A DNA stretch of 38,737 bases, taken from positions 1-38,737 of the forward strand of contig NJBH01000036.1 of the NCBI GenBank assembly GCA_005223125.1, in the 5' to 3' direction. The notes beneath the pieces are model-generated. The model had not been told where the DNA came from and ran no database searches. It was given only the letters and a program-made list of their open reading frames with translations. This document shows positions 10,777 through 14,850 of this stretch, piece by piece (position 1 is the first letter of the stretch; every line of letters begins with the position of its first letter). Origin of the DNA: Promethearchaeota archaeon Loki_b32 (GTDB lineage Archaea > Asgardarchaeota > Lokiarchaeia > Sigyniarchaeales > SOKP01). The translations under genes and the position numbers were made by a program.

Positions 10777-11919
10777 ATGCCAAGAAAAGTATTAATTGCT
10801 TCTGAATCAGCATATCGCAGAAGTTTTCTAGCTGAAATGCTTTCTTCACATAGTGAAATAATTTTAGCTGTTACGGCAAGAAATGGACAAGAAACAGTTA
10901 ATATCATAAAAGCTAAAGACCCTGATGTTTTAATTCTCGATATTGAGTATGAAAATCGAGAGTGGTTAGCACCTTTTAATCTTATAATAAAACAATTAAA
11001 TATACCTACTATTGTTTTAACTGATATAAATCCTAAAAATGTAGATTCACATGAAATTCCCTTCGTCTTACAATCTAATGATTATGTTGTCAAACCTATG
11101 GGTATATGGAAGGATGTACTTCCTACAATTAGAGATATTTTAATCTCTAAAGTGATTTTAGCCCATCTTCCAGAAAAGAGTAAAGTCAATATAAAAGCAG
11201 AGTTATTAAATAAACATATTTTTATACACCAAAGCCAAAAATTAAGAATCAAACCAGAAGTTCAATTTAATGAAACTAAAGAATCCTCAATAGCACGTAC
11301 ATCAGAAGATTATTTTTTAGATCTAACTCCAATCAGTATTACACGATTACCTACTAAGATTGTTGTTATTGGAGCAAGTGTCGGTGGGCCTAGAACCTTA
11401 AGAACAATCTTAAGTGATATTCCCCAAGATTTTCCGGCTCCAATTTTAGTTGTACAACATTTGAATCATCTTTTCATGCGTCAGTTTGTGATGTCTTTAA
11501 AAGATATATGTAAAGTCAATGTAAAAATAGGAATGAATTATGAAGAAATCAATCCTGGAATTATTTATCTCTCACCAGGAGATAAACATATGCAAGTTAC
11601 TGTAAAAAATAATAAACCTTGCATTCGAACGTTTGAAGGAGAACCTGTTAATTTTTGCAGACCCTCCGTTGATGTGTTATTTTATTCAACTGCACGTGTT
11701 TACAAGTATAAAACTCTTGGGATTTTACTGACGGGTATGGGATCTGATGGTGCTTCCGGGTTGATGGCAATCAGACAAGAAGGTGGTAAGACAATTGCTG
11801 AATCTGAGGAAACTAGTATCTTATACGGAATGCCTAAAGTCGCTGCTGAAACTGGTGCAGCGAATCTAATAATACCAAATTATAAAATTGTAGATGAAAT
11901 GATTAGATTTGTAAGTTAA
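10777..11919 (+). CDS. cheB: CheB-like protein-glutamate methylesterase with receiver domain
   Basis: GASVGGP, VVQHL, RPSVDVLF, LTGMGSDG, YGMPK; divergent N-terminal receiver. Confidence 0.85.
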   Translation: MPRKVLIASESAYRRSFLAEMLSSHSEIILAVTARNGQETVNIIKAKDPDVLILDIEYENREWLAPFNLIIKQLNIPTIVLTDINPKNVDSHEIPFVLQSNDYVVKPMGIWKDVLPTIRDILISKVILAHLPEKSKVNIKAELLNKHIFIHQSQKLRIKPEVQFNETKESSIARTSEDYFLDLTPISITRLPTKIVVIGASVGGPRTLRTILSDIPQDFPAPILVVQHLNHLFMRQFVMSLKDICKVNVKIGMNYEEINPGIIYLSPGDKHMQVTVKNNKPCIRTFEGEPVNFCRPSVDVLFYSTARVYKYKTLGILLTGMGSDGASGLMAIRQEGGKTIAESEETSILYGMPKVAAETGAANLIIPNYKIVDEMIRFVS

Positions 11920-11951
11920 AATTTATTAATGAATACTAATATTTTAGCATA

Positions 11952-12134
11952 ATGACCGTAGAAGTTAGTGAAGAAGTTAAGAAAGAAATTTTTAAATTAA
12001 TAGCGACTCCCGGAATTGAAATTGAGGATATTGTTAAAAAAACAAAATTAGATTCCGAAACAATCTTAAACATATTATCTGAAGAATATTTGAGATGCAA
12101 TTTAGACCATGGAAAAAGTTTATGTTGTAGATAA
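11952..12134 (+). CDS. Small hypothetical protein (HTH-like, C-terminal Cys)
   Basis: 60-aa ORF with protein-like composition. Confidence 0.55.
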   Translation: MTVEVSEEVKKEIFKLIATPGIEIEDIVKKTKLDSETILNILSEEYLRCNLDHGKSLCCR

Positions 12135-12337: not shown

Positions 12338-12860
12338 GTGAGTGAAAAAGGAAAAGTGGTCGTAAAAGCTCTTGTAACAGGGGGCAGTGCCAGTGGTGGA
12401 CCCCCGATTGGCCCTGCTGTTGGTCCTACAGGCATAAACGAAAATCGTCTCGATTTTTGATGCATACATTAAAGACGTAGTCGATGAGATCAACAAGCAG
12501 ACAACAGTTTTCAGAGGCCTAACAGTACCAGTCAGAATTGAATGTGATCCAGAAACAAAGCAATTCGAAATTTTTATTGAAACACCTTCTACAGCATCAT
12601 TACTATTAAAAGAAGTTGGAGTTGAAAAAGGGAGTTCAGTATGTTCAGATGAGAAAATTGGTAATTTAACACTTGACCAAGTTCAAAATGTAGTTGAAAC
12701 AAAACGAGAAAAATTCTTAGATAAAACATATAAAACTGCTTTAAAAACTGTTTTAGGAACAGCTCTATCCGTAGGTTTGACAGTTGAAGGAGAAGATCCA
12801 AGAGTAATTCAAGAAAGAATTAATAATGGAGATTATGATGAAAAAATAAGGGGTGACTAG
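12338..12860 (+). CDS. rpl11: 50S ribosomal protein uL11, spliced: join(12338..12437,12466..12860), 164 aa
   Basis: GTG start; ...GGSASGGPPIGPAVGPTGIN|IKDVVDEINKQT..FRGLTVPVRI...ETPSTASLLLKE...GTALSVGLTVEGEDP; first gene of the L11-L1-L10-L12 operon. Confidence 0.93.
12438..12465 (+). other. 28-nt BHB mRNA intron in rpl11
   Basis: Central helix GCAT(12432-35)/ATGC(12460-63); bulges AAA(12436-38) and ATA(12464-66); 9-bp intron stem CGAAAATCG/CGATTTTTG; in-frame TGA at 12458. Confidence 0.88.
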
Positions 12861-12866
12861 TATAAC

Positions 12867-13595
12867 TTGAAAGTGGATGATAAATTATTAAAGAAGTCGT
12901 TAAATGCTGCAATTAATTTTTCTGTTATTAAAAAAGAAGGTTTCAAGGACAAAGTAAGAAAATTCAATGAATCAATAGAGCTTATAATAAATATTAAAGA
13001 TGTCAATCTAAAAGATCCAAAAAATAGAATAGATAAAGAGATCATTTTATCGAATGACGTAATTGCAAATGATAAACCTAATATTTGTATAATTGCTTCA
13101 GATGAAATTTTGCTCGAAGCGAAAAAACTTGGTGTAGATACTCTTGATTCTAATGGTTTAGTCAATTTAAATAATGAAGAGAAAAAATTCAAGAAAAAAT
13201 TTGCTAAAAAATATGATTATTTTGTTGTAGAAGATAAAATGATGAGAGATGTTGCTCGCTACTTAGCAAGATTTCTTGGACCTGTTGGGAAAATGCCAAA
13301 ACCCTTTCCTACGGGATATGGAATTATTTCCAATCCAAATGATTTAAAAGTTGCTTATGAACGATATAAAAGGGTAATTCGAATTCAAATGAAAAAACAA
13401 CCTATCATATTTGTTAAAATTGGTAAAAAATCTATGGATCAAGAAAAATTATATGATAACATGAAAACGGTTATAAATTTTATCGCTGATCAGATGCCAC
13501 ATAAGTTTAATAATTTTAAATCTATGTATCTTAAATCAACTATGGGAAAACCCGTAAAAGTAACAGAGGAATTCCTAAAAAGTATTGAGGTGTAA
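12867..13595 (+). CDS. rpl1: 50S ribosomal protein uL1
   Basis: RKFNESIELIINIKDVNLKDPKNR, LGPVGKMPKP, KSTMGKPVK; operon position. Confidence 0.92.
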   Translation: MKVDDKLLKKSLNAAINFSVIKKEGFKDKVRKFNESIELIINIKDVNLKDPKNRIDKEIILSNDVIANDKPNICIIASDEILLEAKKLGVDTLDSNGLVNLNNEEKKFKKKFAKKYDYFVVEDKMMRDVARYLARFLGPVGKMPKPFPTGYGIISNPNDLKVAYERYKRVIRIQMKKQPIIFVKIGKKSMDQEKLYDNMKTVINFIADQMPHKFNNFKSMYLKSTMGKPVKVTEEFLKSIEV

Positions 13596-13599
13596 AGAT

Positions 13600-14490
13600 T
13601 TGATTAAAAATAAACATATCCTACAATGGAAAATAGATGAAATTAATCATTTAGTTGATTTGTTTAGAAATTATAAGAATGTTGCTGTAATCGAGGTTGC
13701 TCATATAAATGATATGCAATTTCAGACTATGAGAAAGATTTTGAGAGAAGAAGCAGTATTTAGAATGTCTAAAAAATCACTTCAATTACGTGCAATAGAA
13801 CAATTTAAAAATGAATCTAAGAAGAAAAACCTAGATGAATTTGTGAAAAATATCCCAGGCCAATCTAGCCTTGTTTTTACAAATATTGATTTATTTAAAT
13901 TAAAAAATATTTTTCTTGAAAATGAATGGATGGTCCCTGCAAAACCAAATGAAATTACTCCAGTGGATATATTGGTTCCAGCTGGTGATACAGGTTTACC
14001 TACAGGACAAGTGATTAGTGAATTGAATATGACTTTACGATTACCAACGAGAATTATGAATGATACAATACATATTAGGGAGGATACAAGAACTCATAAA
14101 GCAGGGGATTTAGTCACTGTTAAACAAGCAGCAGTTTTAAAGAAATTGGGAATTACTCCTATAGAATCATTAATTAAGATTCATTTTGCCTGGAGTGATG
14201 GTGAAATCATACCTGAAGAAATCTTATATATGAAAATGGATCAATTTAAACAAGATATTGCTACTGCTTATAGACAAGCACTAGGAATTCTTTTTGAAAT
14301 GCCATTCTTCATGGAGGAAATGACAGATGAATATATTCGGAAAGCTGTATCTGAGGCTAATACACTAGACGCAATGATCTTTGGAGAGGGGATCGAAGTA
14401 TCGGCTGAGCCAGAACCTAAAGTTGAAGAAAAAGAAGCTGAGGATGAACCTGAGGAAGAAGAAGTTGGTATTGGAGGTCTTTTTGGCTGA
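13600..14490 (+). CDS. rpl10: 50S ribosomal protein uL10 (P0)
   Basis: WKIDEI, PAGDTGLPTGQVISEL, LKKLGITP, acidic tail ending GIGGLFG; TTG 13600 behind GAGGTG. Confidence 0.92.
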   Translation: MIKNKHILQWKIDEINHLVDLFRNYKNVAVIEVAHINDMQFQTMRKILREEAVFRMSKKSLQLRAIEQFKNESKKKNLDEFVKNIPGQSSLVFTNIDLFKLKNIFLENEWMVPAKPNEITPVDILVPAGDTGLPTGQVISELNMTLRLPTRIMNDTIHIREDTRTHKAGDLVTVKQAAVLKKLGITPIESLIKIHFAWSDGEIIPEEILYMKMDQFKQDIATAYRQALGILFEMPFFMEEMTDEYIRKAVSEANTLDAMIFGEGIEVSAEPEPKVEEKEAEDEPEEEEVGIGGLFG

Positions 14491-14559: not shown

Positions 14560-14850
14560 ATGGAAAGCATCTATGCTGCATTATTGCTTCATAAAGTTGG
14601 TGGAAAGGTTACAGAAGCAAATGTAGAAAAAGTATTAACTGCTGCAGGTGTAAAAGCTGACAAAACAGAAATCGCCAACCTTATTGCTGGTTTAAAAGGA
14701 GCAGATATTGATGAAATTATAAAATCTGCTGGGTCTATACCGGTAATGGCAGCTCCTGCCGGAGGAAAAACTAAAGAAAAGAAGGAAAAAAAGAAGGAAA
14801 AAGAAGAAGAAGTCGAGGAAGAGCCTACGGGGATAGGATCACTTTTTTAA
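14560..14850 (+). CDS. rpl12: 50S ribosomal stalk protein P1/L12
   Basis: MESIYAALLLH, acidic tail ending GIGSLF; AGGAGG SD. Confidence 0.93.
   Translation: MESIYAALLLHKVGGKVTEANVEKVLTAAGVKADKTEIANLIAGLKGADIDEIIKSAGSIPVMAAPAGGKTKEKKEKKKEKEEEVEEEPTGIGSLF

Follow-up and report, generated by a model that had tools for sequence, protein, structure and literature searches.

A predicted bulge-helix-bulge intron in the mRNA for ribosomal protein uL11 of a lokiarchaeon

In archaea, bulge-helix-bulge (BHB) introns are removed from precursor tRNAs and rRNAs by the splicing endonuclease EndA and the exons are joined by RtcB. In the literature we searched, mRNA introns of this kind are reported only for cbf5 and for the leader of Haloferax HVO_1309, and none is reported for a protein gene of Asgard archaea. 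Here we describe a 38,737-nt stretch of DNA from the Asgard archaeon Promethearchaeota archaeon Loki_b32 (contig NJBH01000036.1; hereafter the window), in which rpl11, the gene for ribosomal protein uL11, is interrupted by a 28-nt insert that has the form of a BHB intron. All coordinates given for this gene are positions within the window, on the + strand.

The closest described system is the cbf5 intron of Desulfurococcales and Sulfolobales (Watanabe 2002; Yoshinari 2006; Yokobori 2009, PMC2738675). Like the rpl11 insert, it is a short BHB intron inside a coding sequence, with cuts between the second and third bulge bases. It is also similar in having a mostly relaxed motif that requires hetero-oligomeric EndA, and in its patchy distribution, from which secondary losses were inferred (PMC2738675). 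The link between cbf5 mRNA splicing and hetero-oligomeric EndA is credited to Yoshinari 2006, as cited in PMC5829648. The two systems differ in that rpl11 encodes a ribosomal protein and that its introns belong to Asgard archaea rather than Crenarchaeota. An rpl11 gene can hold up to three introns, drawn from four sites, with micro-exons of 22-28 nt between them. The rpl11 introns also turn over much faster, with presence and absence at about 95% nucleotide identity. Splicing of cbf5 was shown by cDNA, and that of rpl11 is predicted from sequence. Finally, the cbf5 intron sits at the codon for the catalytic Asp; the rpl11 intron is an analogue, not a member of the cbf5 family.

Archaeal pre-tRNA and pre-rRNA introns resemble the rpl11 insert in predicted motif geometry, cut positions and enzymes. 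In contrast to these, rpl11 presents an mRNA substrate: its splicing has to bring a reading frame back together and has to compete with translation, recognition gets no help from a tRNA body, and the outer helix comprises just one base pair. In eukaryotes, splicing of HAC1 and XBP1 mRNA likewise removes a small, frame-changing intron independently of the spliceosome, and a tRNA ligase seals the exons. There, however, IRE1 cuts at stem-loops and the reaction is regulated by stress, whereas the rpl11 RNA would be cut by EndA at a BHB motif with no sign of regulation. A role of RtcB in XBP1 splicing is mentioned in PMC8718801. HVO_1309 of Haloferax volcanii (PMC7714728) is, like rpl11, an mRNA substrate of the splicing endonuclease, in its case confirmed in vivo and in vitro, but its intron lies in the 5' untranslated region rather than in the coding sequence, and the enzyme has a different architecture.

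The interrupted uL11 gene and its splicing enzymes

The first uL11 frame is open for 40 codons from the GTG at 12338, and the remainder of the protein is encoded in the +1 frame from 12468. Removing positions 12438-12465 gives GGC AUA A/AC AUU, so that the protein reads G-I-N-I-K-D-V-V-D-E-I-N, and leaves a coding sequence of 495 nt, or 164 codons and a stop. From these features and the comparisons below, we think it very probable that 12438-12465 is a BHB intron in the mRNA of a functional uL11 gene. The elements are as follows:

12338..12437, + strand: uL11 exon 1, with a GTG start, 33 codons and the first base of an Asn codon; matches the Ribosomal_L11_N profile at 1-26
12432..12435, + strand: 5' strand (GCAU) of the central 4-bp BHB helix, in exon 1; its partner is 12460-12463
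12436..12438, + strand: first 3-nt bulge (AAA), with the predicted 5' cut at 12437/12438; this cut restores the frame
12438..12465, + strand: predicted 28-nt intron; exactly this stretch is missing from the relatives L071 and L072
12439..12459, + strand: intron hairpin h', 9 bp including one G-U (12439-12447 with 12451-12459), loop UCU
12458..12460, + strand: TGA that ends the exon-1 frame in unspliced RNA, giving a 40-aa product
12460..12463, + strand: 3' strand (AUGC) of the central helix, in the intron; its partner is 12432-12435
12464..12466, + strand: second 3-nt bulge (AUA), with the predicted 3' cut at 12465/12466
12466..12860, + strand: uL11 exon 2, opening with the two remaining bases of the Asn codon, followed by 130 codons and TAG at 12858-12860; matches the Ribosomal_L11_N profile at 27-58
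12867..13595, + strand: uL1 gene, next in the operon (Pfam)
13585..14490, + strand: uL10 (P0) gene (Pfam)
14560..14850, + strand: gene for the P1/L12 stalk protein (Pfam)

The outer helix consists of the single flanking pair G12431-C12467, and the motif is therefore of the relaxed HBh' type and not a full hBHBh'. Its strands follow one another in the canonical order of archaeal splice sites: 5' exon helix strand, bulge, intron hairpin, intron helix strand, bulge, 3' exon. The Ribosomal_L11_N profile is split between positions 26 and 27, showing that the break is a clean cut inside one domain, and the RNA-binding domain falls entirely within exon 2 (Pfam). Exon 2 is not translatable alone, since its frame in the window has no ATG, GTG or TTG that would yield an open reading frame (ORF) of at least 30 aa. 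The gene stands first in an L11-L1-L10-L12 operon that is otherwise intact, and it is the one uL11 match in the whole genome, a draft of 71 contigs with 95.5% completeness and 29.9% GC. An earlier, sequence-only reading of this DNA had proposed a 28-nt BHB intron in rpl11, and we find its helix, bulges, hairpin and outer pair just where it placed them. The junction that it drew between 12437 and 12466 is likewise the one that restores the conserved segment and that matches the relatives lacking the insert.

From the structure, the restored frame, the precise presence and absence of the insert, the selection on both exons and the enzyme genes, we infer cleavage, ligation and their timing, which would run as follows. 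In the emerging operon transcript, 12432-12435 would pair with 12460-12463, and the 9-bp hairpin would stack on this helix, leaving the two 3-nt bulges exposed. An (alpha-beta)2 endonuclease would then cut after the second base of each bulge; cutting between the second and third bulge bases is the rule that was used, and checked with cDNA, for cbf5 (PMC2738675). RtcB would join the exons and probably circularise the intron. Only after joining would the 164-aa uL11 be readable, while unspliced RNA would yield the 40-aa stub.

Two ORFs of the genome, at about 184.2 kb on contig C18 and about 78.5 kb on C2, have the EndA fold; they are 202 and 205 aa long. The one of 202 aa most resembles the catalytic alpha chain of the A. 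pernix heterotetramer (3p1z_B, E = 2e-35), and the alignment spans the loop region with its K-P-R and Y/H/K positions. The 205-aa ORF is more divergent and, by eye, is without the His, as expected of a structural beta subunit. By these comparisons the genome encodes a predicted alpha/beta EndA pair, and it has one gene for RtcB. Asgard archaea have been assigned an (alpha-beta)2 EndA with an L1 loop that confers broad specificity, and the relaxed HBh' motif is accepted only by broad-specificity enzymes (PMC5829648). To judge from the sequences, the uL11 mRNA almost certainly needs cutting and rejoining by tRNA-splicing enzymes.

The tRNA genes of the same genome, the usual targets of these enzymes, were found in low numbers: 15 by ARAGORN and 21 by Rfam RF00005, several of them longer than 100 nt. 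By our own estimate, at least 40 would be expected for such a genome, and the tRNA genes are probably mostly interrupted beyond what the tools can parse. Intron-rich tRNA genes, with many non-canonical introns, are described for some Asgard archaea (PMC11291895; bioRxiv 10.64898/2026.10.13.758758). The tRNA intron calls made by ARAGORN were too few and too doubtful for a comparison of tRNA with mRNA introns.

Presence, absence and inheritance of rpl11 introns among relatives

Two relatives, an ENA metagenome scaffold (L071) and a Logan contig (L072), are about 95% identical to the window, and the only gap in the gene is 12438-12465. Both include upstream intergenic DNA and the operon, and are thus genomic. 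They encode the junction just as predicted, and their uL11 products are 98% identical to ours over exon 2. Uninterrupted uL11 orthologues of 164 aa (P0002-P0009) have the same length as the predicted spliced product. The N-termini of intronless orthologues read exon 1, Asn and exon 2, as predicted, and these proteins are 95-98% identical to ours over exon 2. The nearest uL11 proteins bear the names of Promethearchaeota, Lokiarchaeota or Lokiarchaeia metagenome-assembled genomes, in keeping with the Lokiarchaeia named by the sequence-only reading.

We then scored the insertion point, hereafter site A, in 50 genomes of the same genus. The insert is present in 14 of them and measures 28 nt in every carrier; the other 36 read G-I-N-I-K without interruption. 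A 28-nt insert at the same site also occurs in a second genus of the family. In a sample of 301 genomes from the phylum, among the matches listed, which were about half of them, short open frames at rpl11 were confined to the family of the window.

Across the alignment of 14 alleles, 96.4% of cells at the proposed pairs hold standard pairs, compared with 24-46% after shifting the partners by 1-3 columns. Pairing is complete (100%) in the central helix and reaches 94% of cells in the hairpin; two hairpin pairs show compensatory changes, from A-U to G-C and from C-G to U-A. The outer pair is G-C, with G-U in 3 of the 14 alleles. Among intron carriers, exon 1 has a ratio of non-synonymous to synonymous substitution rates (dN/dS) of 0.067 and exon 2 one of 0.072, with dS at about 1-1.5. 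These ratios indicate that both exons have long been under strong protein-level selection, in offset frames, and a pseudogene is thereby excluded. The sequence-only reading had argued against a pseudogene, citing the intact exons and the operon, and selection on both exons now bears this out. The comparison across relatives to which it had pointed, of presence, absence and covariation, also came out in favour of its intron.

Relatives also hold similar inserts at three further rpl11 sites, all within the first 100 nt of the gene:

Site B: after T-G-G, 31-37 nt
Site C: after P-P-I, 31-36 nt
Site D: after P-A-V, 28-30 nt, seen in another genus of the family

Such inserts were noted in L007, L008, L013, L021, L023, L031, L034, L038, L040, L041, L044, L046, L050 and L073-L083. 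The motifs of sites B and C were derived manually from their sequences. At site B the UGGG/CCCA helix is perfect and the bulges measure 3 nt; the cut rule gives GGG AG/U GCA, read as G-S-A. At site C the outer helix is strong and the 3' bulge measures 3 nt, but the 5' side is looser; here the rule gives AU/A, read as Ile. Within the genus, introns occur in the combinations A, B, C, B+C and A+B+C; all three are found together in two genomes (G005 and G044), where the exons between them are reduced to micro-exons of about 22 and 28 nt.

To place these introns on a phylogeny, we built an operon tree from exon 2, uL1 and part of uL10 (1,500 columns, with support from the Shimodaira-Hasegawa-like approximate likelihood ratio test, SH-aLRT). 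On this tree no fewer than 11 state changes are required for site A, and 7 for each of sites B and C, counted as an unrooted character, so that gain and loss are not separated. The window allele belongs to a well-supported clade of 10 rows whose other 9 rows are intronless, and the rows closest to it in the tree, L071 and L072 (97% identity), have no intron either. Distance between introns tracks distance between second exons (Mantel r = 0.62, p = 0.0002). The window intron differs from every other intron in at least 4 of its 28 bases, and is therefore not a recent import from any sampled lineage. Collectively, the sequences favour a model in which the site-A intron is old, vertically inherited and precisely lost many times. 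A profile search of the genome found no RVT_1 reverse transcriptase, leaving cDNA-mediated intron loss unsupported.

Several intronless alleles, including the nearest, carry GGC AUA AAY at site A, which is the sequence that the central helix of the intron needs. This retained sequence fits the footprint of a precise loss; alternatively, it may be a preferred insertion target. The motif is often retained in the intronless alleles L035, L036, L037, L040, L044, L051 and L066-L072.

Introns of similar design in other genes

We scanned the genome for BHB geometry combined with the joining of ORFs, using as controls spliced lengths shifted by 1-2 nt. In the strictest class, which would miss relaxed motifs, 11 joins were found compared with 5-7 in the controls, and this class gave four extra introns of canonical BHB form, supported by Pfam (loci L062-L065):

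C3, 75804-75833, 30 nt: gene for aEF2; the junction lies inside the A-H-I-D-H-G-K-T-T P-loop, and the GTP_EFTU profile resumes at 12
C66, 7883-7912, 30 nt: gene for CTP synthase (PyrG); the CTP_synth_N profile resumes at 14
C45, 47178-47210, 33 nt: gene for CdhD; profile 176/179
C36, 188607-188636, 30 nt: LOR-like gene; the LOR profile begins at 32 in exon 2

In the genes for aEF2, PyrG and CdhD, exon 2 resumes at the expected Pfam position, while the LOR-like gene shows a profile start at 32. The hairpins of the rpl11 introns, taken over all four sites, mostly end in a pentaloop that finishes with UC (AUUUC in 13, AAUUC in 6, AUAUC in 4, and others including CCUUC) and that is usually closed by C-G. 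The same pentaloop cap is found in the aEF2, LOR-like and CdhD introns. This shared cap hints at common descent, a shared structural need or a recognition feature. Searching the rpl11 introns against their own genome with blastn-short revealed no dispersed copies, only AT-rich matches at chance level, and Rfam reported nothing in the window at gathering scores. We give even chances to the idea that a single family of mini-introns (28-37 nt, with a BHB base and mostly a UC-ending pentaloop hairpin) has colonised the 5' ends of highly expressed protein genes in this Lokiarchaeia-type family (among them rpl11 at four sites, aEF2, pyrG and cdhD) and has repeatedly and precisely been lost from them.

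By the evidence of these sequences, the uL11 insert is very probably a real BHB intron in the mRNA of an essential ribosomal protein, and we found no published report of such an intron in the literature we searched. It would extend the splicing of archaeal coding sequences by the tRNA machinery, documented in that literature only for cbf5 in Crenarchaeota, to an essential ribosomal protein and apparently to aEF2, CTP synthase and others. Asgard archaea are the closest known relatives of eukaryotes, and here introns appear to be gained or lost on the time-scale of species. If the interpretation as one mini-intron family is true, mRNA splicing by EndA and RtcB would be routine and essential in close relatives of eukaryotes, and some ribosomal-protein genes would contain several introns with micro-exons between them. 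Such a system would open to testing the questions of how coupled transcription and translation cope with mRNA introns, how introns are lost precisely without an obvious reverse transcriptase, and whether BHB introns move between sites.

Contrary evidence and other explanations

A number of results weigh against an intron. The outer helix has one base pair, and covariation is modest, involving 2 of 13 pairs. The local fold (56 nt) has a z of -1.55, and 13 of 200 shuffled sequences fold equally well. The genome-wide joining scan showed no overall excess over its controls, with about 2,500 joins in every class. In longer RNAs, the probability of the BHB fold is 0.07-0.22 when 30-240 nt of downstream sequence are included, and the minimum-energy fold of a 223-nt context uses a competing hairpin. 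The exact spliced junction of the species had 0 matches in JGI metagenome contigs, and a degenerate junction search returned only 5 multi-gene genomic contigs of other species and no cDNA-like record. Protein collections held only truncated, mis-started ORFs, or none, for intron-carrying relatives where full-length uL11 products were looked for, and none for the genome itself.

About 185,000 BHB-like motifs turn up in a loose scan of this AT-rich genome, and the BHB fold by itself is not above chance. The finding rises above chance through the exact restoration of the frame together with the comparative data. When the transcript ends shortly after the 3' splice site, the BHB prevails over other folds, with an ensemble probability of 0.66-0.74. 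The folding calculations thus favour recognition of the BHB during transcription, and splicing may depend on such co-transcriptional timing. The exon segment 12470-12490 is able to base-pair with the intron's 3' half (12454-12462), and this pairing beats the BHB in equilibrium folds of longer RNA.

A real intron might in addition serve as a dedicated regulatory switch that ties the output of uL11, or of the operon, to EndA activity. The intron is 5'-proximal, the in-frame stop in unspliced RNA would silence uL11, the competing downstream hairpin could modulate BHB formation, and the authors of the cbf5 work proposed negative regulation for that intron (PMC2738675). We nevertheless think a dedicated switch improbable: sister lineages at about 95% nucleotide identity do without the intron, the state at site A changes repeatedly on the operon tree, introns of the same design occur in unrelated genes, and no conserved element was found beyond the BHB and the apical loop. 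The sequence-only reading had gone further and suggested that the intron couples ribosome production to tRNA and rRNA processing. This suggestion we find unsupported, the intron being dispensable in sister lineages and its design being shared with unrelated genes.

If the frame were instead restored in translation, no splicing would be required: the ribosome would shift to the +1 frame after the Ile codon, or bypass the 28 nt. Indeed, 13 of 14 alleles keep the exon-2 frame open across the intron, so that a +1 shift anywhere between 12438 and 12457 would reach exon 2, and some alleles have matching Asn take-off and landing codons. Such a shift, however, would place about 10 variable residues in the best-conserved loop of the N-terminal domain, where orthologues that are 95-98% identical have none, and changes within the insert follow base pairing rather than amino-acid conservation. 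Bypass of the T4 gene 60 type needs matching take-off and landing codons, and in the window, as in several other alleles, these are mismatched (AAC and UAC). The inserts at site B hold two in-frame stops, so recoding cannot explain these sister inserts, whereas the BHB rule fits all four rpl11 sites and the four other genes. We therefore hold recoding to be very unlikely.

It is just as doubtful that the locus is a pseudogene or an assembly or sequencing artefact, with a working copy in the 4.5% of the genome that is missing from the assembly. In favour of this are the broken frame and the state of the genome, an incomplete draft in many contigs. Against it, the same 28-nt insert recurs in a further genus and in 14 genomes of this genus that were assembled independently, both exons have a dN/dS of about 0.07 at saturated dS, the operon is otherwise intact, and this is the sole uL11 match in the genome. 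Least credible of all is an arrangement in which the two halves, an N-terminal peptide of 40 aa and a C-terminal protein, are made separately and come together on the ribosome with no splicing, which could draw on public annotations of truncated L11 (126-152 aa) in intron-carrying relatives but for the break in the middle of one Pfam domain, the window's exon-2 frame without a start for even 30 aa, and the called starts in relatives, which lie at differing, non-homologous places and in some cases inside the intron.

The predicted BHB intron also carries a cost for annotation, as pipelines record the split rpl11 as an N-terminally truncated L11 and probably mis-call other split genes. Entries annotated as '50S ribosomal protein L11' that are N-terminally truncated to 126-152 aa include P0021, P0040-P0042, P0046, P0074, P0077, P0079, P0092, P0102 and P0105, some with called starts inside the intron.

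A separate observation concerns the gene for ribosomal protein eS26 (C44, about 11805-12080; L086, 1495-1773), whose ORF is uninterrupted. No ATG, GTG or TTG lies in the stretch from the preceding in-frame TGA to the conserved P-K-K-R-K start, and the first codons are UUC CUU AUU CCU. The gene could use an unusual start codon or begin in a tiny upstream exon.
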